Shown here: positions 225 through 62,216 of the stretch, one piece after another
Layout of the letters: every line of letters starts with the position of its first letter
Position numbering within the stretch: the stretch's first letter is position 1
Source: Candidatus Saccharimonadales bacterium
Lineage (GTDB): Bacteria; Patescibacteriota; UBA1384; 2-12-FULL-50-11
DNA length: 64,000 bases
Direction of reading: 5' to 3'
Assembly (NCBI GenBank): GCA_035480235.1
Contig: DATIHX010000003.1
Location: 85,514 to 149,513, forward strand
Made by a program: the position numbers and the translations under genes
Notes under the pieces: model-generated
What the model saw: only the letters and a program-made list of their open reading frames with translations
Databases searched by the model: none
What the model was told of the DNA's origin: nothing

Positions 225-2321
225 ATGTCAAAACTCACTTCGACCACCATCCCCTTTGGCGAAACTGAACTAAAACTCGAAAGCGGCAAAGTTGCGAAAC
301 AAGCTCAGGGTTCTGTTGTTGTTCGCCACGGCGACGCGGTTCTGCTGGTGACGGTCGGTGTCGCCAAAGCCCCCCGTGAAGGGACGGACTTTTTCCCGCT
401 GACGATCGATTACGAGGAGCGGATGTACGCCGCCGGCAAAATTTCCGGCTCGAAATTCATGAAACGCGAAGGCCGCCCGAGCGAAGAAGCGATTCTCAAG
501 AGCCGGATCGTTGACCGCTCAATTCGCCCGATGTTCCCCAAAGGCTTCCGGCGCGACGTCCAAATTATTATTACGACGCTGGTTTACGACGACGTTCACG
601 ACCCAGCCGTGATGGCCGTGGTCGGTGCCTCGGCCGCCTTGATGCAAACCGACGCTCCGTTTGAAGGCCCGATCGCCGCCGCCCGCGTCGGGATGATCGA
701 TGGCAAGCTAATTTTGAACCCAACTCTCCCCCAACTCCAAGAAAGCACGCTCGACCTATTAGCTTCCGGCACCAAAGACAAAATTACGATGATCGAAGTC
801 GGCGCTCAGGAAGTGCCGGAAGAAAAAATGGCCGAAGCGCTGGAGTTTGCCCAGCAGGCGATCGCCAAAATGCTCGAACCGCAAAAAACGTTTATTAACC
901 CGGCTAAAGAAAAGATCGTTTTTGAAGACCCGGAGCATATCACTGAAATTAAAAAATTCGCTGCCAGCGAGCTGGAAAAAATCGCCGCCGAACCAGACAA
1001 GCAAAAACGCGAAGTGCTGACCGAGGCGTTGCTCGCCAAAGCCAATGTTGAGTTTGCCGAAAAATACGAACCGGGGCTTGTTCAAGAAGCGGTGGACGTT
1101 GGCTTTCTAAAGGCTGTCCGCGCCCTGATAATAGACAAAAAACAGCGGCCCGATGGCCGGAAAATGGACGAGATTCGGCCCTTAAGCATGGAAGTCGGCT
1201 ATCTGCCGCGCGTTCACGGCTCGGCCTTATTTAATCGCGGCGAAACCCAAGCCCTAACTGTCGCTACGCTCGGTGGCCCGGCCGAAGAGCAGTGGATCGA
1301 CACGATGGAAGAGTTCGCCAAGAAGCGCTATATCCATCACTATTTCTTCGCCCCGTTCGCCACCGGTGAAGTCAAACGCCTTGGCGGCGGTAACCGCCGC
1401 GAGATCGGCCACGGCGCCTTGGCCGAAAAGGGCTTAGAGCCGATGATCCCCGCTAAAGAAGCCTTTCCTTATACTATACGGCTGGTGACCGAAACGCTCG
1501 GCTCGAATGGCTCCAGCTCGATGGCGGCGACCTGCGGCTCGACGCTCGCCTTAATGGACGCCGGCGTGCCGATTAAAAAACCGGTCGCGGGCATCGCCAT
1601 GGGCTTAGTTTCGGAATCCGACGACAACTATCAAGTCTTAAGCGACCTCCAGGGCCTAGAAGATTTCGCCGGCGAGATGGACTTCAAAATCGCTGGCACG
1701 CGCGACGGCATTACCGCCATCCAGCTCGACGTCAAAAACAAAGGCCTAACCAAAGCGATGATCGCCACCACCTTCGAGATGGCCAAAATCGGCCGAATGT
1801 TTATTTTGGACGAGATGAAAAAAGTCATCGCTGAACCGCGCAAAGAGCTCTCCCCACTCGCCCCGCGGATTTTGACCTGCCACATCGCTCCCGAAAAAAT
1901 TGGTGAACTGATCGGTCCGGGCGGCAAAAACATTAACCAGCTGATTGACGATCACGGCGGCCGGGAAGTTTTGAACATCGATATCGACGACGACGGCACG
2001 GTCTATATTACTTCTGGTGACGCGGCCGCGGCCGAAGCTGTCAAAACCATTGTTGAAAGCATCGGCATCCCGATTGAGGTCGGCACCGAATTTACTGGCC
2101 CGATCACCGACATCGTTAAAGACCGGAATTCCGGCAAAGAAATCGGCGCCATCGTTCAGCTCACCCCCAACAAAGACGGGATGATTCACGTCTCATCGCT
2201 TGGCACCGGCGGCTTCGTCGAACGGGTTTCTGACGTCGTCAAAGTTGGCGATACCGTCACCGTTAAAGTTAAAGACGTCGACGAAGAGCGCGGCCGAATT
2301 TCGCTCACTCGCATTGGCTAA
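225..2321 (+). CDS. pnp: Polyribonucleotide nucleotidyltransferase (PNPase)
   Basis: About 700 aa with two RNase PH-like halves, then KH and S1 regions (…GPGGKNINQL…, …GAIVQLTPNKDGMIHVS…GDTVTVKVKDVDERGRISLT). I prefer the ATG at 225 (MSKLTSTTIPFGE…) over the TTG at 189 because it matches the canonical N-terminus. Confidence 0.95.
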   Translation: MSKLTSTTIPFGETELKLESGKVAKQAQGSVVVRHGDAVLLVTVGVAKAPREGTDFFPLTIDYEERMYAAGKISGSKFMKREGRPSEEAILKSRIVDRSIRPMFPKGFRRDVQIIITTLVYDDVHDPAVMAVVGASAALMQTDAPFEGPIAAARVGMIDGKLILNPTLPQLQESTLDLLASGTKDKITMIEVGAQEVPEEKMAEALEFAQQAIAKMLEPQKTFINPAKEKIVFEDPEHITEIKKFAASELEKIAAEPDKQKREVLTEALLAKANVEFAEKYEPGLVQEAVDVGFLKAVRALIIDKKQRPDGRKMDEIRPLSMEVGYLPRVHGSALFNRGETQALTVATLGGPAEEQWIDTMEEFAKKRYIHHYFFAPFATGEVKRLGGGNRREIGHGALAEKGLEPMIPAKEAFPYTIRLVTETLGSNGSSSMAATCGSTLALMDAGVPIKKPVAGIAMGLVSESDDNYQVLSDLQGLEDFAGEMDFKIAGTRDGITAIQLDVKNKGLTKAMIATTFEMAKIGRMFILDEMKKVIAEPRKELSPLAPRILTCHIAPEKIGELIGPGGKNINQLIDDHGGREVLNIDIDDDGTVYITSGDAAAAEAVKTIVESIGIPIEVGTEFTGPITDIVKDRNSGKEIGAIVQLTPNKDGMIHVSSLGTGGFVERVSDVVKVGDTVTVKVKDVDEERGRISLTRIG

Positions 2322-2323
2322 AG

Positions 2324-2614
2324 TTACTCTTTGCCTGGGTAGCCCCAGCCGTGCATCTGGTAGTAGCCTTGAGAGAGCTCTTCTGGCATCTCGGGGGCAA
2401 TGTACGTGAAACGGGGCACTTTTTTGCCGTTAACAGTGATCATTCCCTGAAACATCTCGAGAGGGCGAACGGTTAACCTGGGGCCCTTTTTCGGCCCCAA
2501 AGGCACATAAACCATAAAACTTTCTTCAGTTTCCGAGTGCCGGGCCACCCCCAAAACCAGCACCATCAGGCCGGTGTAATGCCGGTAAACCCCGGCTAGA
2601 ATGTCTTTACTCAT
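2324..2614 (-). CDS. DUF1653-family small protein
   Basis: The pattern YRHYTG…VLGVARHSETEE.FMVYVPL is typical of DUF1653. It overlaps the truD stop by 8 nt. Confidence 0.6.
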   Translation of the reverse strand: MSKDILAGVYRHYTGLMVLVLGVARHSETEESFMVYVPLGPKKGPRLTVRPLEMFQGMITVNGKKVPRFTYIAPEMPEELSQGYYQMHGWGYPGKE

Positions 2615-4019
2615 CGCCGACCTCTAAATCCTCCAGCGAGGCTTTGGGAAAAGCCTCTTCGGTTTCGCTAATTGGCGGATAGCCGATGCGTTTCCGGGTA
2701 TCAACGACATTCTGGTTAACCCAATCTGGCACCGGCCGGCCCTGGTAGAGCTGGAAAAGCTCGGCCAAAAAAGTCGTGGCGTAGGCGCCTTTGGTTAAGT
2801 CGAAGTGGAAGATCACTCCCTCATCGACGGCGGTAACCGAATGAACCGTCACCGGCACGCGGGTCGGCACACGGCGCGGTCGGGTATCGCCCAGGAACTT
2901 TAGTAAGGGATGGCGCCAGCGGAGCTCGCCCAACTTTTCGTTTGGCAGATAGTGCTCGTACCAACCAACGCAGGTTGGGTCGAGCTGAGGAATGGTTTCG
3001 TCGATCTGCCCTTTGGCGAGCTGGGCCGACAAAACCGAATTAAAACAATAACTGCCGTAAGCATTAACGGCGAATTTAATTTGATCACCAACCGCTTCCA
3101 GCGCGCCAATGAGGTTGCCCGGTTCTTGGACTAAGACGGCCAGCGCTTTCAGTTCGTTTTGGAAAAAATACGGAAACGCCGAAAACTGCTCGACCATCGC
3201 CGGCCAATCGCCCCAACTAGCGGCGGCTTGGAGGCGATTTTTTTGCAAGGCTCGGCCTTCATGGGGGCTGGCGCCAACTAGCCAAAGCTTAAAAGCCTCG
3301 TCGTACTGACTTTGCAAGATAAACTTCCCGACGTGGTGGGTGAGGAGCCGACTGCCGAAGCGTTGGAGCGAGAAGAAATTAAAAAAGCCCCGATTTTTGA
3401 TTTCGTCCAAGCGGGTTTGCAGGATTTCGTTATTCAGCTCACCGGTCCGGACCAGAATCGTAAAACGGTTGCCGAAAAGTTCACCAATGTTACGCATCCC
3501 TACCCGGTAGTGGGCGTTTTTAATAAATAAATTGGGGATCGAAACTCCCTCCAGCTGTTCGCGGGTGATGCTGTTAACTGATACGCGCTGAGCGGTAATG
3601 GCTTTGCCGTCTTTGAGGCCGCCGTAGGTAATTTGGTTCATCGGCAAATTCAGCGCTTCGGCCAAGCGTTCCAGGGCTTCAAAGGTGCTGAAGCCCTGCT
3701 TGACCAGCTCCACTTCCAGTCGGAGCCTCTTTTCCGGGTCGGTAGGGGCAGGGGCGTCCCAATCTGGTTGACCGAGTGGCCCGGCTTCGACACTGGCGAT
3801 CGCCCCTTTTTCGGTGATTTCTTCAACGATAAAGTCCGAATAATGTAATTTGATGTAACCGTTGCCGGCGGTGATCGGCTGTTGAATAATGCCGATTTTT
3901 TTTAGAAATTCCGGTGTAAATTGCGCCGGCTGCTCAGCCTCGCCAAGGCTAGGATCTTGCTCGGTTAGGGCTTTCAGTTTTGCGCCATCTCGTAAACGGT
4001 CGTGGTAGCTAGCAGCCAT
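2607..4019 (-). CDS. truD: tRNA pseudouridine synthase, TruD/Pus7 family
   Basis: TruD motifs are present: catalytic YGGLKDGKAITAQ (GxKD), FTILVR, NFFSLQRFG, and C-terminal LTKGAYATTFLAEL. Confidence 0.8.
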   Translation of the reverse strand: MAASYHDRLRDGAKLKALTEQDPSLGEAEQPAQFTPEFLKKIGIIQQPITAGNGYIKLHYSDFIVEEITEKGAIASVEAGPLGQPDWDAPAPTDPEKRLRLEVELVKQGFSTFEALERLAEALNLPMNQITYGGLKDGKAITAQRVSVNSITREQLEGVSIPNLFIKNAHYRVGMRNIGELFGNRFTILVRTGELNNEILQTRLDEIKNRGFFNFFSLQRFGSRLLTHHVGKFILQSQYDEAFKLWLVGASPHEGRALQKNRLQAAASWGDWPAMVEQFSAFPYFFQNELKALAVLVQEPGNLIGALEAVGDQIKFAVNAYGSYCFNSVLSAQLAKGQIDETIPQLDPTCVGWYEHYLPNEKLGELRWRHPLLKFLGDTRPRRVPTRVPVTVHSVTAVDEGVIFHFDLTKGAYATTFLAELFQLYQGRPVPDWVNQNVVDTRKRIGYPPISETEEAFPKASLEDLEVGDE

Positions 4020-36807: not shown

Positions 36808-38268
36808 CTACTCTTTGGGTCGCAAGGTCGGAAACGGAATCACTTCCTTAATTGAGTGCTGGTCGGTTAAAACCATCACCATTCGCTCGATGCCCATCCC
36901 CCAGCCCGATGTCGGCGGCATGCCGAATTTCAGGGCTTCAATAAAGTTTTCATCCAAGGTCATCGCTTCGTCCCAGCCGGCCTTGCCGAGTTTCATCTGC
37001 TCGCGCAGGCGTTGTTCTTGGTCAAGCGGGTCGTTCAGTTCAGTGTAGGCCTTGAGTAGCTCAAACCCACCAGCGGCGATCAGTTGGAATTGTTCGGCGA
37101 TCGTCTCGTCGTCCCGACCCTTTTTGGCTAGTGGCTGTAAGGCGATCGGGTAATCAATTACAAACGTCGGCTGGATAATCTTCGGCCGGGAAACTTTTTT
37201 GAATAATTCATCAACAAGCTCGCTCCAGACTGTAATGTCTTGGCCTTCAAAGGTAATTTTTTTCGCTTTGACGGCTTTATCCAATTTCTCAAACGTATTT
37301 TCTTTGGCGATGTCGATGCCGCAGTCGTCTTTAATAACATCGGCATACTTTTTAACGGCGAAATCGCCCGCAAAGTTTATTTTTTGCTCTTGATAAGTAA
37401 TTTCCAGCGACCCGCAAACTTTTTTGACCAATTCTTGAACCAAGTCCTGGGTGGCTTTCATAAAACCGCGGTAATCTTGGTAGGCCCAGTAGGCTTCGAC
37501 CGAATAAAATTCTGGGTTATGCATATGCGAGAGGCCTTCGTTGCGGAAACTCGGGCCGATCTCGAAAACCCGGTTGAAGCCGCCGGCGACAAGGCGCTTT
37601 AAGTAAAGTTCCGGCGCGATCCGCAGGTAAAAGTCGGCATCCAGGGCGTTGTAATGGGTAACGAACGGTTTGGCGGTAGCGCCGCCAGGAATCGGCTGCA
37701 AGATCGGGGTGTGCACTTCCATAAAGCCGTGGCGGATGAAAAATGCTCGGATAATTTCCACCACTTGCGCGCGCGTCTCGATAATTTTCTTGGCCTCGGG
37801 GTTAATCTTGAAATCGAGCGCCCGCTGGCGATAACGGCTTTCCACATCGGTTAGGCCGTGCCAAGCGTCCGGGATTGGTAGTAAGGACTTGGCCAGCAGC
37901 TCATACGATGCAGCTTTCAACGATAACTCCCCAGCTTTGGTGGTGAATAATTCGCCGCTGGCCCAGAGGTAGTCACCGACGTCCAGGAGTTTTAGTAGTT
38001 CGTAATTTTTCTCACCGACGTCTTCCTGTTTGAAGTAAACTTGGAGTTTTTGATCGTCGTCCACCAAATCGAAGAAAGTACTTTTGCCGTGTTCGCGAAT
38101 GGCTTTAACGCGACCAACGGTTGCGGCTGGTTTGCCCTCTTTCAAACCTCGCACTTCGGCGATGACCAAATGCTCCGGCGTTGTGTTGGGGTACGGGTTA
38201 ATGCCGAGCTTCTTCAGCTCTGCCAGTTTTTCCAACCGAATTTCTTTCTCGCTTTTGTTCTCCGCCAT
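36808..38268 (-). CDS. lysS: Lysine--tRNA ligase, class II
   Basis: An OB anticodon-binding N-terminus plus class II motifs (…FMEVHTPILQPIPGGATAKPF…, …FRNEGLSHMHNPEF…, …GMPPTSGWGMGIERMVM…). Confidence 0.95.
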   Translation of the reverse strand: MAENKSEKEIRLEKLAELKKLGINPYPNTTPEHLVIAEVRGLKEGKPAATVGRVKAIREHGKSTFFDLVDDDQKLQVYFKQEDVGEKNYELLKLLDVGDYLWASGELFTTKAGELSLKAASYELLAKSLLPIPDAWHGLTDVESRYRQRALDFKINPEAKKIIETRAQVVEIIRAFFIRHGFMEVHTPILQPIPGGATAKPFVTHYNALDADFYLRIAPELYLKRLVAGGFNRVFEIGPSFRNEGLSHMHNPEFYSVEAYWAYQDYRGFMKATQDLVQELVKKVCGSLEITYQEQKINFAGDFAVKKYADVIKDDCGIDIAKENTFEKLDKAVKAKKITFEGQDITVWSELVDELFKKVSRPKIIQPTFVIDYPIALQPLAKKGRDDETIAEQFQLIAAGGFELLKAYTELNDPLDQEQRLREQMKLGKAGWDEAMTLDENFIEALKFGMPPTSGWGMGIERMVMVLTDQHSIKEVIPFPTLRPKE

Positions 38269-43924: not shown

Positions 43925-44266
43925 TTAGGCCGCGTCGGCCATCGGGGCAGCGCCACCATCAGCGTGGTCGGTGTGCTCTTTGCGCGGGCGGGCAAAGTCA
44001 ACGGCGATTTTGCGGCCGTCAACGTCGCTACCGTTCAGTTCTTGAGCGCATTTTTGGGCCATCTCGGCGTCGGCTAACGTTACAAAACCATAGCCTTTAC
44101 TTCTAGGGCCGAACCGACCGTTTTTATCCATGACGATAACGGCGTCGGTGACGCTGTTTTCGCCAGCTACTTTTTCAAACATCGCCTTTAAATCGGCGTC
44201 GGTCATCGCAAACGGCAAATTGCCCACGAACAACCGGTTGTTTTCTACGTTTGTATTCTCTTCCAT
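43925..44266 (-). CDS. RNA-binding protein with an RRM domain
   Basis: RNP-2 LFVGNLPF and RNP-1 KGYGFVTL. Confidence 0.85.
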   Translation of the reverse strand: MEENTNVENNRLFVGNLPFAMTDADLKAMFEKVAGENSVTDAVIVMDKNGRFGPRSKGYGFVTLADAEMAQKCAQELNGSDVDGRKIAVDFARPRKEHTDHADGGAAPMADAA

Positions 44267-44411
44267 GCTTCCTGACAAACCTTTCTTTCCTTAGCCTATA
44301 CTTCGTACGTGAGTGAGTTCGAATCTCCCTCAGACTTGAGAATAGTGTAGCAGAGGCGTCAAGCGCTTGCCAAGAGTTTTAACTGGAGTATGGTGAGGAA
44401 AAGGAGGTTTG

Positions 44412-44552
44412 ATGGAAGATAAGAAAATGTGTGATTGTTCGGGTTGCGCGGTTCACGAAGAGAACGCTGGTCCGGAAGCGATGTGCACTTGCCCGGTTGG
44501 CGAGAAGGAGTGCAATTGCGATATGTGCCTGCCCAAACGGGCGGCCGCTTAA
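44412..44552 (+). CDS. Small cysteine-rich protein (46 aa, 8 Cys), metallothionein-like; not in the supplied ORF track
   Basis: AAGGAGGT lies 4 nt upstream of the ATG. The sequence is MEDKKMCDCSGCAVHEENAGPEAMCTCPVGEKECNCDMCLPKRAAA, with CxCxxC twice plus CxC. Confidence 0.55.
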   Translation: MEDKKMCDCSGCAVHEENAGPEAMCTCPVGEKECNCDMCLPKRAAA

Positions 44553-44566
44553 GTAATTTGTTCAAC

Positions 44567-44583
44567 TCCCCTACAATAGGGGA
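44567..44583 (+). promoter_or_regulatory. Hairpin abutting the GT4 start codon
   Basis: TCCCCTA-caa-TAGGGGA ends one base before the ATG at 44584 and contains the only SD-like purines (GGGGA). Confidence 0.4.
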
Positions 44584-45765
44584 ATGCGGATTATCCTTGG
44601 TACGATGTCGTACCCACCCCAGGTTTCTGGGGTGGCCGTGTTTGTGCGCCAACTCAGTGAGTTTTTGGCTGAAGCCGGCCACGAAGTCCATATCGTCGCG
44701 CCAGCCAACCAGTTAAAAAGCTTCACCGAGCGGCGAGGAGAAATTATTATCCATCGTTTGCGAGCGTGGCAGAATCCGCTACGACGGGGTTTTTATATCC
44801 CGCTTTTTGTTAAGAAACAGGCCGAAGCCTTAATTCGGGAGATTCAGCCCGACGTCATTCACGTTAACGATCCGTTGGCGATGAGCCGGTACCTGCAACG
44901 AGCTGGCCGAAAAATCGGTGTGCCAACGGTGGTATCGAACCACTTTTTAATGGATTACATCTTGGCCTATTTCCCGAAATTTCTCCGCCGGCTGCTTGCC
45001 CATTACCTAAGAAATTGGATGAATTATTTTTACAACGAATGTGATGTGGTGGTAGCGCCGAGCCAATCGGCGGTCGAGGCGTTGAAACGGCTGGGTACCA
45101 CGGCGCCGCTGGTAGCGCTCTCCAACGGTGTCGACCTCCACCGCTTTTTTGTCTATTCGCCTTTGGAAGAAATTCGGGCGAAGTTCAGCATCCCCCACCG
45201 GCCGATTGTTTTATACGTCGGCCGAGTTGACCCGGATAAATCGGTTAACGTGCTCATCCAGGCTTTCCAGCAACTGCTCGCTCGCCGGCCGGCCCAACTA
45301 GTGTTGGTGGGCGGCGGCACTAAGGCCGCCGCGATAATGAAAGATGCCCGCCAGCGGTTGGGCGAATTTGTGACGTTTACCGGTCCGGTTGCCCACGAGT
45401 CCGAAGATTTAGTGGCGTTGTACCAGCTTTGCGATATTTTTTGCATGCCGTCATCGATTGAGACCCAAAGCATTAGTACGCTGGAAGCCATGGCTGCCGG
45501 TAAGCCGATAGTGGCCGCTGACGGCGGTGCTTTGCCTGAACTGGTTCAGAATCATCAGAATGGCCTCTTATTTGCCCCAGGCGACGCGATGGCGCTGGGG
45601 GCACTCTTAGAGGAAGTGCTGGCTAATCCGGCCGAACAAGAGCACTTTGGGGCGGTCAGTTTAGAGCGGATCGCTCATCACGAGCTGGAACGAAGCCTCG
45701 GTTTGTATGTTACACTCTACCTTGAATGCCGCGAAAAATCGTTGTTGGAACCGTTATCGCCGTAA
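44584..45765 (+). CDS. Glycosyltransferase family 4 (GT-B)
   Basis: N-terminus MRIILGTMSYPPQVSGVAVFV…, C-terminal …PSSIETQSISTLEAMAAGKPIVAADGGALPELV… (EX7E region). Confidence 0.85.
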   Translation: MRIILGTMSYPPQVSGVAVFVRQLSEFLAEAGHEVHIVAPANQLKSFTERRGEIIIHRLRAWQNPLRRGFYIPLFVKKQAEALIREIQPDVIHVNDPLAMSRYLQRAGRKIGVPTVVSNHFLMDYILAYFPKFLRRLLAHYLRNWMNYFYNECDVVVAPSQSAVEALKRLGTTAPLVALSNGVDLHRFFVYSPLEEIRAKFSIPHRPIVLYVGRVDPDKSVNVLIQAFQQLLARRPAQLVLVGGGTKAAAIMKDARQRLGEFVTFTGPVAHESEDLVALYQLCDIFCMPSSIETQSISTLEAMAAGKPIVAADGGALPELVQNHQNGLLFAPGDAMALGALLEEVLANPAEQEHFGAVSLERIAHHELERSLGLYVTLYLECREKSLLEPLSP

Positions 45766-47184: not shown

Positions 47185-47778
47185 ATGGCCGAAAAGATTG
47201 ACTGCCGAAGTTGGCTTAACCGGCCGACTGAGCTAGCTGACAAAGAATCTATTTATGAGGCATATAACGCCGATCGTTTTGGTAATGCTATGCGGCGCTG
47301 GAACAGCGTCGAGGAATTCTTGGCATCAGATTATCAAGATCCCGTGGTTATGCGCTACCAGCTTCGGCCGGGCCGGCTTTTCCCCCTTTACGGAGCTATC
47401 ATTACTCGCGATCAAGTCGAGGCGATGGCGGCGGAATGGCGAAAGTTGGGGGCAGATCCAGCACTGATTCGCTTAAATGAAGGAGTTGGCTCGGTCGTCT
47501 TTCAGGGCGAATTGATGCGGGATCACCTCTTCCTATCACTTCGCTATAGCTTGGTGGACAAGCCGATGCGTTTGGCCTTAGAAGAGGCCGAACAATACGC
47601 TTGCGGTTTGCAGGCTAAGCATCTGCTAGAGCGTTACCTCTGCCCAAACAGCCTGGCCGATCTTTGGGAATTGTTTGATCGTTACGACGACGCAATTATC
47701 GAATTCTCAACGTTCACAAGCGATGTCGGCCTCTGTCCGCGCCGAAACACTATCATGTGGGAAGTTCGGCGCAATTAA
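47185..47778 (+). CDS. Hypothetical protein (197 aa)
   Basis: AGGAG SD. No motif recognised. Confidence 0.5.
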   Translation: MAEKIDCRSWLNRPTELADKESIYEAYNADRFGNAMRRWNSVEEFLASDYQDPVVMRYQLRPGRLFPLYGAIITRDQVEAMAAEWRKLGADPALIRLNEGVGSVVFQGELMRDHLFLSLRYSLVDKPMRLALEEAEQYACGLQAKHLLERYLCPNSLADLWELFDRYDDAIIEFSTFTSDVGLCPRRNTIMWEVRRN

Positions 47779-56863: not shown

Positions 56864-58354
56864 CTACCTTGCTTTGACGGTTAATCGCTCGATCAGGAAC
56901 GGCTTGATGATTGCTTGGGCTGTTTGGTTGGCCCTCACTGCCGCGCTTTTTGGCCACCACCACGACGGATTAGTCGAACTCATATAATTAATGACGCCGC
57001 CGCCTTGCAGTAACAGCAAAATCACCACCAGCGCCAGCCCCGCTTGCCAGTGCCGCTTTTTGACCGCCTCGGTGATTGCCCAACCCAGCAGCAGTAAGAG
57101 CGCTGGGAAAATTGGGAAAAGATAACGGGCCTGGATAGCGGTGTATTGTTGGAGGCCGTGGTACTCGGCAAAATTTAACAGCCAGAGCGCGGCCACATCG
57201 GTGCCCACCACCACTAGTAGTAAACTGAAATGCGGCCGGCGAGCGGCCAGCCGCCGCCCGAAAACCAGCAGCGCTACCAACCCACCGCTAAAAATAAGGC
57301 CAGCGGTAATTTCCGGCAACAAAAAAGCGCTGCCGGTAGCGTAATCTTGGCGAATCACAAAAAACGGCTGTTGCCACATCCGCCAGGCCCAAACGCCGGT
57401 GAATTTCAGCGGGTTACCGTTAAAACCGGTAGTTTTTTGGGCGGCGTAGTGGAAATTCCGGGCCCACGGCCCGTAATCCAGGCACGGGTCGGTGCCGATC
57501 ACCCTACCACAATCGGGTACCAGCTCGTGGTATCGGGCCACATTGTAGCCGTAGCGTTCAATAAACAATCCGCCACTAAGAATAAGCGCAGTAATCAGCA
57601 ACATTTTGACGGGCAAAGCAATTTTCGTCCAACTGTTTTTGAGTGATTTTGCTAAAGTCCGCCGTTGTCGCCACCACTGGGCACCGAGATAAATTGCTAG
57701 CCCAGCCATAATTGGTAGAAAAGTGTATTTTACTAAACTGGTCAGGAGCGCTAAGATGATCAGCCAAAGCAGTTTAGCTGCGTCAACCCGGACAGCCTTC
57801 AAAGCATTGGCGACTTGGGCTGTTAACAAAAGGCTCAAAGCGGTCAGTGGGAAAAGTAAATTGTCGTAGTTAATCTGCCCGGCCAAGAAGGGGATTTGCG
57901 GTAAAAGTATTAACACTACTAGGACGACGTTGCCGAGCGCCCCGCTCACCCCAAGGCAACGAAAAACTTTTTTCCACAACGCTAAACCACTGGCAAAGAG
58001 GAAGACGTTAACTATGCGCAAGGCCACGATTTGATCGGCCGTGTTTTTAGTAATTACTTCAATCAACCGATATAAAAAGCTCAGAAGATAATGAAATAAA
58101 TAGGACGGGTAGCGGGTGACGTCGCCAAGAATACTCGCCCCGGCCGGTTCGTGGCGGAAAAAAGGGCTCAGTTGATGGCTGTAGAGCTGAATTAGGCCGA
58201 AGTGGTAATTCTCGTCGAAAGCCATCGGATAGCGGGCCGAGAAGGCGATCCAGAGCGCTTCGATCACAAACGCGGTGATTATCAGTCGATAAAAAAAGTC
58301 GGCCGCCAATATGCCACGCCACCGTTCGCTCCAGCTCCTCATCTTACTACCCAT
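56864..58354 (-). CDS. GT-C fold membrane glycosyltransferase (ArnT/PMT-like)
   Basis: At least 11 predicted TM helices, and a first-loop acidic motif AFDENYH typical of GT-C enzymes. Confidence 0.55.
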   Translation of the reverse strand: MGSKMRSWSERWRGILAADFFYRLIITAFVIEALWIAFSARYPMAFDENYHFGLIQLYSHQLSPFFRHEPAGASILGDVTRYPSYLFHYLLSFLYRLIEVITKNTADQIVALRIVNVFLFASGLALWKKVFRCLGVSGALGNVVLVVLILLPQIPFLAGQINYDNLLFPLTALSLLLTAQVANALKAVRVDAAKLLWLIILALLTSLVKYTFLPIMAGLAIYLGAQWWRQRRTLAKSLKNSWTKIALPVKMLLITALILSGGLFIERYGYNVARYHELVPDCGRVIGTDPCLDYGPWARNFHYAAQKTTGFNGNPLKFTGVWAWRMWQQPFFVIRQDYATGSAFLLPEITAGLIFSGGLVALLVFGRRLAARRPHFSLLLVVVGTDVAALWLLNFAEYHGLQQYTAIQARYLFPIFPALLLLLGWAITEAVKKRHWQAGLALVVILLLLQGGGVINYMSSTNPSWWWPKSAAVRANQTAQAIIKPFLIERLTVKAR

Positions 58355-58371
58355 ACTATATAATTCTAACT

Positions 58372-59283
58372 GTGAAAAACTTCATAAAAAACCGTCGGGT
58401 GCGGGTGGTCTTAGTTGTCAGCATTTTGCTGGCCACGACGCTGGTCTTTGTCCGCTTCTTTTTAACCCACCCCGAGTACTGGGCCACGCTCACCGGCGTC
58501 TCGGTCGCCACCGTCGGCTGGATCGTTTTATTAAACCTGGTTGGTTTAACTATTTTGGTAGCGATAAACGCTTGCTTGCTGCGCTTCTGCGGCGTCAAGT
58601 TGGGGTTTTTAGAGCAGTTTCAACTGACCAGCTACTCGGCGATCGCCAACTTTTTCGGGCCGTTGCAAAGCGGGCCGGGCGTCCGGGCGGTTTATTTGAA
58701 AACCAAATACGGCGTTCGGCTACGTGACTACTCGCTGGCGGCCGCCCTTTACTACGCTGTTTTCGCCGTGTTGAGCGCTGTTCTGCTGTTCGGTTTTTCC
58801 CAGCCCTGGTGGCAAGCGCTGCTCCTGGTGGCAGCGGTCGGCGCGGTTGTTGTTGGTGTTATCCGTCGGTATAGCCGGGGCGCCGGTTCGGCCGCAACCG
58901 GCTGGCACTTTGACGCTGCGGCTTTTGGCGTCCTGGTAATTCTAACGGCGCTCCAGCTGGTAGTTATCGCCCTCTGGTATTTCGTCGAATTGAAAGCGGT
59001 AGCGCCGGCTGTCACTCTTCGTCAAGCGCTGATTTATTCGGGCGCCGCTAACTTCGCCTTATTTGTCTCTTTAACGCCGGACGCCATCGGTTTTCGGGAA
59101 GCTTTTTTAATTTTTTCGGCCCGCCTTCACGGCCTGGCGACCGCGGCGATTATCAGTGCCAATCTGCTGGACCGGGCCGTTTACGCCGCTTTTTTGGGCG
59201 GTGTCTTTTTAGTACTCTTGGTTACCCACGCCACCCGTCGCTTCAAAGGTTTCCCAAAGCCCGCCCCAGCCGCCCAGCAATAA
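58372..59283 (+). CDS. Polytopic membrane protein, UPF0104/lysyl-PG-synthase-TM-like (flippase-like, tentative)
   Basis: About eight TM helices. Its glycosylation-cluster context fits. The call is tentative. Confidence 0.4.
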   Translation: MKNFIKNRRVRVVLVVSILLATTLVFVRFFLTHPEYWATLTGVSVATVGWIVLLNLVGLTILVAINACLLRFCGVKLGFLEQFQLTSYSAIANFFGPLQSGPGVRAVYLKTKYGVRLRDYSLAAALYYAVFAVLSAVLLFGFSQPWWQALLLVAAVGAVVVGVIRRYSRGAGSAATGWHFDAAAFGVLVILTALQLVVIALWYFVELKAVAPAVTLRQALIYSGAANFALFVSLTPDAIGFREAFLIFSARLHGLATAAIISANLLDRAVYAAFLGGVFLVLLVTHATRRFKGFPKPAPAAQQ

Positions 59284-60370
59284 TTTTGGTGGCAAATTTC
59301 TGCTCAAAAAGCTGACGGCCGTTTGCGCCGATTTTCATTAGTTCGCTCGGGTGGGCCGCTGCCCAGCTGATAGTTGCCGCCAGCGCCGCGGCGTCGCCTT
59401 GTGGCACGACCAGCGCGTTTTGTTTATCGCTAAAATCGTTCGATGCCCGGTTTTGGCCGACCACCGTTGGCCTCCCGCAGGCTAAAAATTGATAGGCTTT
59501 GCCGGTCACCACCATTTGCGCTTGCAGCGTATCGCCGAACGGCCCGGCCAAGCAGAGCGCACTTTGCTTGATAGCTTCGGGTAGTTCGTCAAACGGAATC
59601 CACTTTTTATACTCGACGTTAGCACCTTTACTTTTCGCGGCTCCGATTTTTTCGGCCGCTTTCGGCCCGCCGCCAACCAGTAAAAAAACCACCCCTTTAT
59701 CGCTTAAGAGCGATAACGCCGCTTGGAGCACAACGTCCAAACCGTGGAGCGGCAGCATACTGCCGTAATATAAAACCTGAAATATAGTAGATCGCTTTTC
59801 CCCTCCGTCGCCACTCTTCCCATACGTCATATCCGATGTATGAGAATTTCGGCCAGGAAATTTTTTGGCAATTATTGGCTGGAAAACGGTTTCATCGGTG
59901 CCGACGGGAAGTGCTAGGTATTTTTCTAATGGCACGTTACTGCGTTGGGAGGAGTATTGGGCGTGGGCGGGTGTGTCGGCCAGAATGAGCCGGCATTTTT
60001 TTAGCTGCCGGCCGTACCATGAGTTTAGTAACTTCGCCGCCCAACTGTTTTTGGAAAGTTTTTTGTGCTCGTCCACTACCCATTCGGTCAGATTAATAAA
60101 CTCATCAAAAATCACCGGCGTTTTACCGGCGACGAGTAGCAAAAACGGCAAAATTTCGTAACCGCGGAATGTTAACAAAAATACGTCCGGCTTTTCTTGG
60201 CGCTTAACAATAATTATTTTCCGGATCACTTCAAAGTAGCGACCCAAACCTTTTTTGGAATTTTTAACAATAATCGTTTCCACGCCCGGCAACTGCTTCA
60301 GTGCTGAACGCAACACTCGGGCCCGAACGTAATCGGGCTGTCCGTAACAAGTAATAACGGCAATTTTCAC
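59243..60370 (-). CDS. Glycosyltransferase (GT-B, family 1/4-like)
   Basis: MKIAVITCYG… N-terminus and a C-terminal …VGGGPKAAE… …CLAGPFG… pattern. It is convergent with, and overlaps, the upstream gene. Confidence 0.65.
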   Translation of the reverse strand: MKIAVITCYGQPDYVRARVLRSALKQLPGVETIIVKNSKKGLGRYFEVIRKIIIVKRQEKPDVFLLTFRGYEILPFLLLVAGKTPVIFDEFINLTEWVVDEHKKLSKNSWAAKLLNSWYGRQLKKCRLILADTPAHAQYSSQRSNVPLEKYLALPVGTDETVFQPIIAKKFPGRNSHTSDMTYGKSGDGGEKRSTIFQVLYYGSMLPLHGLDVVLQAALSLLSDKGVVFLLVGGGPKAAEKIGAAKSKGANVEYKKWIPFDELPEAIKQSALCLAGPFGDTLQAQMVVTGKAYQFLACGRPTVVGQNRASNDFSDKQNALVVPQGDAAALAATISWAAAHPSELMKIGANGRQLFEQKFATKIIAGRLGRALGNL

Positions 60371-61571: not shown

Positions 61572-62102
61572 CTAGCGCCGATGCCGATTGCTGGCATAGG
61601 CATTGAAGGGTTGATGGAATTGCCCCTCAAAAGCCGCGGAGAACGGAACGAGCGCCAGATCCTTTTGCAGCATCGGCGTAGTTGGGCTTTGCATCCAGGT
61701 AATGACGTCGCCGTTGGTCACGGTGTCGTGGTCAGCGGCGTCGGCGCCGTTCGGGCCTTGGCCAAACAGCGGCTGGTCGTTAACTTCGTACGTCAGGCCG
61801 ATACCCGGATCAACGGTTTTGCCGTTATAGGTAATGGTGGTGACGAATTCACCGTTATCGTGCTGGTCGCCGTTGGCCCAGTAACCGTTGCGTCGACTGG
61901 CTTCGAAAACAGTCCCGTCGCCATCAACCGGAATTCTGACAAATTGGAGAATGTCGCTGCCAGCCCCACCGCCACCACAGCCGACTTCCGCCGAAACCAC
62001 CAGCGAGATAACGCCGGCTTGCAAGAGACGAACAGCAAAGATACCGGAGCCAGCGTAAGCGCTCGTGATGGCCAGGAATTGCCGCCGAGATATTTTTTCC
62101 AT
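61572..62102 (-). CDS. Tat-signal secreted protein, DUF4430 (transcobalamin-like C-terminal domain)-like (tentative)
   Basis: Twin-arginine motif SRRQFL plus a hydrophobic region. …LTYEVNDQP…GADAADHDTVTNGDVITWMQ resembles the DUF4430 end motif as I remember it. Confidence 0.4.
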   Translation of the reverse strand: MEKISRRQFLAITSAYAGSGIFAVRLLQAGVISLVVSAEVGCGGGGAGSDILQFVRIPVDGDGTVFEASRRNGYWANGDQHDNGEFVTTITYNGKTVDPGIGLTYEVNDQPLFGQGPNGADAADHDTVTNGDVITWMQSPTTPMLQKDLALVPFSAAFEGQFHQPFNAYASNRHRR

Positions 62103-62216
62103 GTAACGTGCGTTACCTCCTTGTAAGGTTGTTCTGTTATTGTAAACAATTTTAGCGGCGAGGCAACTGGCCGCCGAGTTCCTGAAAGGCAGTTTTCTTG
62201 GTAAGATGAAAAACTA

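Follow-up and report, generated by a model that had tools for sequence, protein, structure and literature searches.

Between a divergent gene for an RRM-domain RNA-binding protein and a gene for a GT4-family glycosyltransferase (GT4), contig DATIHX010000003.1 of a Candidatus Saccharimonadales bacterium carries a 46-amino-acid (aa) open reading frame (ORF) with eight cysteine codons, hereafter the small ORF. The contig was analysed over positions 85,514 to 149,513 of its forward strand, a stretch of 64,000 nucleotides (nt) referred to as the window, and coordinates given without a locus name are positions in this window. The arrangement raises the question of whether the small ORF is a gene at all, what its product might do, and whether its translation is coupled to the genes behind it, as the original prediction proposed on the strength of a hairpin close to the GT4 start codon; these genes encode GT4, a PIG-L/LmbE-family deacetylase and a DedA/VTT-domain membrane protein. 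As judged by comparison of sequences, 44412-44552 is a genuine, conserved coding gene, mostly unannotated, and it is a gene of a narrow clade of Saccharimonadales, bacteria of ultra-small size; its product may be a metallothionein-like metal binder, and GT4 most probably has a promoter of its own.

The small open reading frame and its relatives

Translation of the plus strand at 44412-44552 reproduces the predicted frame exactly, giving MEDKKMCDCSGCAVHEENAGPEAMCTCPVGEKECNCDMCLPKRAAA followed by a TAA stop at 44550-44552. The eight cysteines among the 46 residues form the motifs C7xC9xxC12, C25xC27 and C34xC36xxC39, that is, two CxCxxC motifs around a CxC. The ORF had been described as unlisted, which holds only against a length-filtered ORF list: with a minimum of 30 aa it is found as 44409..44552, with a TTG start and 47 aa, and the NCBI annotation contains it as hypothetical protein VLE93_00735 of a Candidatus Saccharimonadales metagenome-assembled genome. 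Two overlapping ORFs, 44435..44716 (+) and 44359..44691 (-), do look spurious, as had been suggested; in locus L001, the closest relative, nothing of 40 aa or longer corresponds to them.

In protein databases the microprotein has the look of a near-orphan. A search of 5.8 billion proteins, both with the single sequence and with a profile, returned, besides the query, a single relative of 46 aa at 80% identity, and nothing further came from scanning 1.84 billion protein representatives in full with HMMER. The appearance arises because orthologues went uncalled as genes. They were located by synteny, with the neighbouring GT4 as anchor, on the contigs of progressively more distant GT4 orthologues; a GT4 scan of genome contigs gave only relatives of at most 31% identity, which were of no help for synteny. 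The syntenic loci (L001, L036, L037 and L038; Table 1) are all metagenomic and share a gene order in which the RRM gene points leftwards and the small ORF, GT4, PIG-L and DedA genes follow one another rightwards. In L001, L037 and L038 the small ORF is flanked by the divergent RRM gene on one side and GT4 on the other, L036 being cut off upstream, and in three of the four (L036, L037 and L038) it had not been called. A degenerate DNA pattern scan of metagenome contigs gave mostly chance matches and, among the matches listed, one true locus, L088, which holds two tandem paralogues of the microprotein. Here the flanking genes are on the opposite strand, a secreted CAP-domain protein is encoded close by, and the second paralogue is preceded by an AAGGAG Shine-Dalgarno (SD) sequence; neither paralogue appears as a called gene in the protein databases.

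The six full-length sequences (window, L001, L037, L038 and the two L088 paralogues) were used for analysis of selection, the L036 sequence being partial. Glu2, the eight cysteines and His15 are invariant in all six, at identities to the window protein down to 33%, and define the family motif C-x-C-x(2,3)-C-x2-H-x(5,9)-C-x-C-x(3,6)-C-x-C-x2-C. Both TGT and TGC are used at every one of the eight cysteine columns. In distant pairs, identity at codon positions 1 and 2 is 0.47-0.72, compared with 0.28-0.43 at position 3, and the indels among orthologues comprise whole codons only (multiples of three). The ratio of nonsynonymous to synonymous divergence (dN/dS) between the window and L001 is 0.32; at the nucleotide level the small ORF is 85.5% identical between the two, the flanks 71-74% and the upstream intergenic region 73.8%. 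Syntenic orthologues keep the frame, the cysteine spacing, the histidine and the SD sequence down to 39% identity. The check on which the original prediction had staked its case, whether frame and cysteine spacing are retained in relatives, was run, and both are conserved, in the syntenic orthologues as well as in the two non-syntenic paralogues. The locus exposes a gap in gene calling, in that a family of cysteine-rich microproteins has largely been missed by gene callers.

Table 1. Positions of the features of the small-ORF locus in the window, and of the related microprotein genes in their own loci
Feature	Position	Strand	Basis or remark
RRM-domain RNA-binding protein gene, divergent	43925..44266	-	Pfam RRM_1
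Small-ORF promoter-like element	44367..44394	+	Consensus scan
SD sequence AAGGAGGT	44401-44408	+	3 nt before ATG; read in sequence
Small ORF, 46-aa Cys8His1 microprotein gene	44412-44552, stop included	+	Translation
Tryptic peptide of the small-ORF protein, MCDCSGCAVHEENAGPEAMCTCPVGEK			
Inverted repeat TCCCCTA-CAA-TAGGGGA	44567-44583	+	In 31-nt spacer
-10-like hexamer TACAAT	44572-44577	+	6 nt before GT4 ATG; overlaps hairpin
GT4-family glycosyltransferase, 393 aa	44584..45765	+	Pfam Glyco_transf_4, Glycos_transf_1
PIG-L/LmbE-family deacetylase, 265 aa	45726..46523	+	Pfam PIG-L, E 8e-26; overlaps GT4 end by 40 nt
DedA/VTT-domain membrane protein, 201 aa	46520..47125	+	Pfam VTT_dom; start overlaps PIG-L stop (ATGA)
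L001 small ORF, 46 aa, 80% identical	3399-3539		GT4 identity 81%; called as gene
L036 small ORF, C-terminus only (contig edge)			GT4 identity 74%; not called
L037 small ORF, 45 aa, MEEAMNKCECGMMCDCHADGAGEGAMCTCTPETCHCQMCAAKRQG			GT4 identity 64%; not called
L038 small ORF, 44 aa, MEENMKCDCANCQKHTVGAHMPCNCDKADKTCDCAMCNEAPTAA			GT4 identity 57%; not called
L088 tandem paralogues of the microprotein	1920-2060 and 2085-2222		24 nt apart; no GT4 adjacent

Two other unannotated cysteine-rich mini-ORFs came to light in the metagenome scan, neither of them recognised by the hidden Markov model (HMM) of the microprotein family. One encodes MEESSDNCHCECHLGGAVSCPTCKKNHHEVCKCEDC (36 aa, 8 Cys; L043 980-1087); among the matches listed, it is identical in at least L044, L046, L086, L097 and L127, and has one-substitution variants in at least L149 and L151. 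The other encodes MEDAKKCDCGCKVEDGMCDGCGCEQSECTCKDC (33 aa, 9 Cys; L058 419-517).

Identity of the microprotein

The best reading of the product is a metal-cluster, metallothionein-like microprotein, at roughly even odds (a probability of about 0.5) on its sequence features. Metallothioneins are defined operationally by a cysteine content of about 15-30%. The small-ORF protein, with 17% cysteine (8/46), combines low mass with high cysteine content in this way, as do its relatives with 8-10 cysteines in 44-46 aa. It also has the CxC/CxCxxC pattern with few aromatic residues: Phe, Trp and Tyr are absent from five of the six sequences, including the window protein, and the L088a sequence contains a single Trp. 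The protein lacks a signal peptide; with 9 Asp/Glu to 5 Lys/Arg it is acidic, and its acidic N terminus, MEE or MED, is specific to the microprotein family. By these operational sequence criteria it would qualify as a metallothionein, yet it falls in no known family and is best described as a putative metal binder. The identities first suggested for the product included a metallothionein and a cysteine-rich peptide substrate; a metallothionein-like cysteine pattern, under selection, is upheld, and the role of substrate is unlikely.

In the mechanism proposed, the eight cysteines and His15 (CxCxxC..H..CxC..CxCxxC) would bind a metal-thiolate cluster, around which the peptide would fold. Zn3Cys9 clusters are known in the metallothionein β-domain and in CXC and pre-SET domains; the nine ligands of the microprotein would most likely hold a three-metal Zn(II) cluster, or else a Cu(I) cluster, as in metallothionein domains, and the protein would buffer or donate metal in the cytoplasm in the manner of a metallothionein. 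A Zn3Cys9His cluster has been documented in a Pseudomonas metallothionein, PflQ2 MT (PMC7387436). The AlphaFold model of the apo protein, computed from a two-sequence alignment, has a predicted local distance difference test (pLDDT) score of 61 and a predicted template modelling (pTM) score of 0.35 and thus shows no confident metal-free fold, which is compatible with a metal-dependent fold while providing no evidence for one.

Searches of the family databases place the microprotein in no described group. In Pfam the window protein had no match at a cut-off of E <= 1, and PF02069 was matched by none of the six members at a cut-off of E <= 10; the only hint from Pfam, the plant EC metallothionein family PF02068 for one L088 paralogue, is insignificant (E = 0.24). 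NCBIfam gave no match to the window protein at E <= 10, SCIFF included, and neither the single sequence nor a profile of the six found a metallothionein or any significant match in the PDB.

Likeness to known metallothioneins is accordingly one of pattern. Fungal copper metallothioneins and the mammalian β-domain carry CxC...CxC...CxCxxC with 7-9 cysteines and form M3Cys9 or Cu6 clusters. Together with the plant EC metallothioneins they resemble the C-terminal CxC-x(3,6)-CxCxxC of the small-ORF protein and its count of nine ligands, a resemblance in pattern only that is statistically unsupported, the histidine ligand and the acidic N terminus being specific to the microprotein. The BmtA/SmtA family (PF02069; Synechococcus SmtA, Pseudomonas PflQ2 MT) likewise consists of small cytoplasmic proteins of 44-56 aa with about 9-11 cysteine and histidine ligands, CxC motifs and no signal peptide. 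Here, in contrast, the spacing is CxCxxC-H-CxC-CxCxxC, an RRM protein instead of an SmtB-type repressor is encoded divergently, and there is no sequence match, the PF02069 HMM being matched by none of the six members. The mycobacterial Cu(I) metallothionein MymT is also lineage-restricted, about 50 aa long, equipped with CxC-type motifs and a histidine, and escaped annotation until it was looked for (partly PMC7387436); none of the searches detected homology to it. Known bacterial metallothioneins are few, and by 2020 function had been studied only for SmtA and MymT (PMC7387436).

Several observations weigh against the metallothionein-like reading. Homology to any characterised metallothionein was not detected, and metal binding is putative. 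In none of the loci does a gene of metal homeostasis adjoin the small ORF, neither SmtB/ArsR, CsoR or CopZ nor a heavy-metal P-type ATPase. The family is tiny so far, with at least seven sequences, every one derived from metagenomes. Finally, the small ORF has diverged strangely little from L001 at synonymous sites, with a dS of 0.37 compared with 1.0-1.5, or with a wider range of 1.0-3.0, in six neighbouring genes (binomial P ~0.002), which points to some unexplained extra constraint on it at the nucleotide level.

The main alternative, which we consider unlikely although it is the strongest of the competing explanations, is that the product is a zinc-knuckle microprotein of Cys8His type whose role is to bind a partner, nucleic acid or protein, rather than to buffer metal. 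The RRM protein could be such a partner. All four full-length syntenic loci have the divergent RRM gene, its -35 element overlapping that of the small ORF, and the ligand count fits structural clusters of the Zn3Cys9 type, such as those of CXC and pre-SET domains. The L088 paralogues, however, are not beside an RRM gene, no Pfam zinc-finger or CXC family is matched, and the acidic character of the protein argues against binding to nucleic acid.

For the metallothionein-like reading, a more ambitious form can be formulated, in which the microprotein founds an unrecognised Zn3- or Cu-thiolate family of Saccharimonadales and the candidate phyla radiation (CPR), overlooked by gene callers, serves as metal buffer or metallochaperone of these reduced cells, and supplies zinc to the neighbouring Zn-dependent LmbE-type deacetylase, as part of a pathway for a cationic glycolipid, or handles copper, in view of the cupredoxin gene beside GT4 in L041 and L042; this form is distinctly improbable. 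Members of the CPR have a minimal metabolism and no obvious metal-buffering thiols. We know of no metallothionein described for this group, and a literature search on metallothioneins or cysteine-rich small proteins in Saccharibacteria and Patescibacteria found nothing. If it binds metal, the conserved and strongly expressed-looking Cys8His microprotein would be a concrete CPR metallothionein candidate, and the group would be a new, lineage-restricted Cys8His family inside a known functional kind.

Transcription signals and the hairpin before GT4

The SD sequence of the small ORF, AAGGAGGT, is perfect, as predicted; its distance from the ATG had been given as 4 nt, which applies to the GGAGG core and not to the whole octamer. 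It ranks among the best of the window, the exact octamer occurring only twice in the 64 kb with both strands counted, and a real start codon likewise follows the other copy (62122, -). The window, L001, L037 and L038 all carry AAGGAGGT unchanged, at 3-7 nt from the ATG. The promoter-like element upstream consists of a -35 hexamer TTGCCA (44367-44372), a 16-nt spacer and a -10 hexamer TATGGT (44389-44394). Across the same four genomes, the -35 element reads TTGCCA, TTGCCA, TTGTCA and TTGTTC, with the CTTG columns invariant, and the -10 element TATGGT, TAATGT, TATACT and TATAAC, with the TA columns invariant. From the end of the -10 element to AAGGAGGT there are 6-7 nt in all four genomes; the predicted mRNA therefore starts at the SD itself, with the transcription start inferred near 44401, its first base. 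The small ORF would be transcribed from this conserved promoter of its own (-35 TTGCCA, -10 TATGGT), as an mRNA with AAGGAGGT at the 5' end.

On the opposite strand, a promoter scan found a promoter-like element for the RRM gene, composed of TTGGCA (44373-44368) and then TACACT ending at 44344. The -35 elements of the two genes overlap in the palindrome CTTGCCAAG, and the divergent RRM gene is itself retained in 4/4 of the full-length syntenic loci. The 79-nt RRM leader folds poorly (z = +1.9). On the minus strand at 44310-44330, in the 5' region of the RRM gene, the window and L001 share GTGAGTTCGAATCTC(C/A)C, a motif that resembles the T arm of a tRNA. That this part of the intergenic region holds a tRNA or a similar element was considered and rejected: ARAGORN found none, and the motif is not conserved in L037 and L038. 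As to the second copy of AAGGAGGT, it precedes a 176-aa ORF (61572-62102, -) with a twin-arginine-like N terminus, MEKISRRQFLAITSAYAGSG; a slightly longer plus-strand ORF overlapping it (61581-62126) is probably spurious.

The hairpin that follows the small ORF is as originally described, with 7-bp arms at 44567-44573 and 44577-44583 that are 100% complementary around a 3-nt loop and end one base before the GT4 ATG at 44584. Perfect hairpins with a stem of 7 bp or more and a 3-8-nt loop number 78 in the window (1.2 per kb in 64 kb), from which about 0.018 would be expected in the 31-nt spacer, so a chance occurrence is unlikely, not overwhelmingly so. At the corresponding position L001 has a 6-bp hairpin in which one pair is compensated. 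The GC-rich hairpins of L037 and L038 are different ones, 6-8 nt past the stop, upstream of the -10-like box and 14-20 nt before the ATG. Across the four sequences 68% of cells are paired, compared with 59 +/- 5% in shuffled sequences, 46 of 500 shuffles being as high, which is not significant; fold z-scores are -0.9 to -2.1, with +0.1 in L038.

The view that the hairpin occludes the ribosome-binding site of GT4 finds no support here. GGGGA (44579-44583), the only purine run, abuts the GT4 ATG with 0 nt spacing and therefore cannot serve as an SD; no SD sequence lies inside the stem at about 5-10 nt from the start, and the orthologues carry AAGCCA, TTACG or AAGGC at the position of GGGGA. What the site does contain is a -10-like hexamer, TACAAT. 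Of 12 orthologous loci, 10 have a box of the form TANNNT whose end is 4-10 nt ahead of the GT4 start codon: TACAAT in L001 and L038, TATGAT in L039 and L040, TATAAT in L041, TAAAAT in L037, L042 and L164, and TATTCT in L165. In the window as a whole, TANNNT ends 6-9 nt before the start in 22 of 57 genes, compared with 10 and 3 at control offsets, and an SD core in 12 of 57. Examples of genes with the box, often TGGTAGAAT-like, are 2607-4019 (-), 26949 (+), 36808-38268 (-), 56864-58354 (-) and 59243-60370 (-). The genome appears from these counts to be rich in leaderless mRNAs; a literature search on leaderless genes in Saccharibacteria found nothing. These frequencies call for caution in this genome, where most genes lack an SD sequence and purines near a start codon should not be taken for a ribosome-binding site.

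GT4, with TACAAT 6 nt before its ATG and no SD sequence, has the features of a leaderless gene, and it most probably starts an mRNA of its own at the ATG (44584), transcribed from the TACAAT-box promoter. If GT4 is leaderless, its mRNA lacks the hairpin altogether. The common denominator of the loci would then be a hairpin soon after the small-ORF stop, which would suit a role in termination or stabilisation although a U-tract is absent, and the hairpin at 44567-44583 would form the 3' end of the small-ORF transcript instead of acting as a switch for GT4. Two points count against a separate GT4 promoter: its proposed -35 element, TTAAGT, is weak (3/6), and the promoter was missed by the consensus scan; and the distance from the small-ORF stop to the GT4 ATG is 30-42 nt in five syntenic loci, making co-transcription or re-initiation conceivable. 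The called start of GT4 in L001, at 3593, is probably wrong, an in-frame ATG at 3572 giving MRVIISTMSY, which fits the MR[IV][ILV]I of the orthologues.

Co-transcription is the premise of a coupling model along the lines of the original prediction, in which a single transcript carries the small ORF and the three genes behind it, the hairpin masks the GT4 start, and a ribosome translating or terminating on the small ORF opens it, GT4 expression perhaps reporting cysteine or metal status. The hairpin is real and unlikely to have arisen by chance, L001 keeps one in place with a compensated pair, the stop-to-ATG spacing is always 30-42 nt in five syntenic loci, and local pairing is predicted to involve the GT4 start codon, with different partners, in the window, L001, L036 and L037. 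Coupling of this kind is nevertheless very unlikely. With GGGGA directly at the ATG there is no functional SD to hide, and a ribosome terminating at 44550-44552 would, from the known ribosome footprint, reach only to about 44565, the foot of the stem. The L037 and L038 hairpins lie away from the ATG, pair counts are not significant and fold scores are small (see above), and a leaderless-type TACAAT box is conserved. The claimed link to expression of GT4, LmbE and DedA also fails on distribution. GT4 and PIG-L, with or without DedA, occur in the absence of the small ORF in seven loci (L039-L042 and L163-L165), in which GT4 identity is at most 54%, and in L088 the small ORF occurs without GT4; the genes are thus neighbours in one clade and not one system.

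The GT4, PIG-L and DedA genes

The three downstream genes had been named as GT4, LmbE and DedA, and the Pfam search agrees, giving GT4, PIG-L/LmbE and DedA/VTT domains. In NCBIfam, GT4 comes closest to GlcNAc-PG synthase, MGlcDAG synthase and BshA, at scores far short of the respective cut-offs; GlcN_PG_synth scores 133 bits (cut-off 480) and BshA 112 bits (cut-off 273.7). The PIG-L protein has an N-terminal hydrophobic segment, MPRKIVVGTVIAVIIGLALGF, and scores 64.6 bits with BshB1 (cut-off 182.5), and the DedA protein has weak DedA and UptA matches in NCBIfam. The membrane segment of the PIG-L protein, together with the adjoining DedA gene, suggests a lipid substrate.

By analogy, the three genes look like an aminoglycolipid-type module of a GT4 enzyme, a membrane-anchored deacetylase and a candidate flippase. 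Aminoglycolipid operons of this kind are gpgSDF of Pseudomonas aeruginosa, for GlcN-phosphatidylglycerol, and hexSDF of Clostridioides difficile (PMC12713373), which have the same order of GT4 synthase, deacetylase and candidate-flippase membrane protein. The deacetylase here is PIG-L/LmbE and not COG3233, and the membrane protein DedA/VTT and not COG0392, so that the likeness is one of operon logic only; unlike the present locus, the gpgSDF and hexSDF operons have no cysteine-rich ORF upstream. With GT4 under its cut-off and the D and F components from other families, the genes do not belong to the gpgSDF/hexSDF type.

The neighbourhood of a glycosyltransferase and an LmbE-type deacetylase, retained in five loci, leaves room for the small-ORF product to be their substrate or precursor, whether S-glycosylated by GT4 in the manner of a glycocin, modified by another enzyme, or used as the thiol moiety of a BshA/BshB-like pathway, the weak best matches of the two enzymes being in part BshA (112 bits) and BshB1 (65 bits). 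This explanation is highly unlikely. The bacillithiol scores are far under 273.7 and 182.5, lipid glycosyltransferases score higher, and the features of PIG-L and DedA just described suggest a lipid target. The peptide has no leader/core architecture, no protease, exporter or radical S-adenosylmethionine (radical-SAM) enzyme is encoded close by, and no NCBIfam model, SCIFF or other, is matched; membership of the SCIFF/ranthipeptide class of ribosomally synthesized and post-translationally modified peptides is likewise not indicated, with no precursor match and no radical-SAM gene in the syntenic loci. Moreover, the L088 paralogues do without GT4, and the enzyme trio is kept without the peptide.

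Least probable of all is a regulatory upstream ORF, leader peptide or structured non-coding RNA with a functionless product: the low dS and the excess of nucleotide identity over the flanks in the comparison with L001 would suit it, but the Cys/His spacing is kept at 33-44% identity with third positions near random, the tandem paralogues in L088 stand alone, no terminator/antiterminator pair or U-tract is present, and the structured-RNA version was rejected with an Rfam search of the region that gave no match (best E 2.5) and a putative small-ORF mRNA that folds no better than shuffled sequences (z = +0.24).

In two of the seven loci that have the enzyme genes without the small ORF, a gene for a cupredoxin (type-1 copper) protein lies beside GT4-PIG-L, on the opposite strand in L041 (2025-2408, -) and upstream of GT4 in L042 (2016-2423, +); this position next to GT4, the only hint of a setting in metal homeostasis, may be a coincidence or point to a link with copper. 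In the window, a 197-aa ORF directly after DedA (47185-47778, +) has no Pfam or NCBIfam match, and in L001 and L037 the corresponding position is occupied by a gene for a MazE antitoxin. At the start of L042 (1-1265), a Saccharimonadales contig, a reverse transcriptase gene (RVT_1) lies beside bAvd, the signature of a diversity-generating retroelement.

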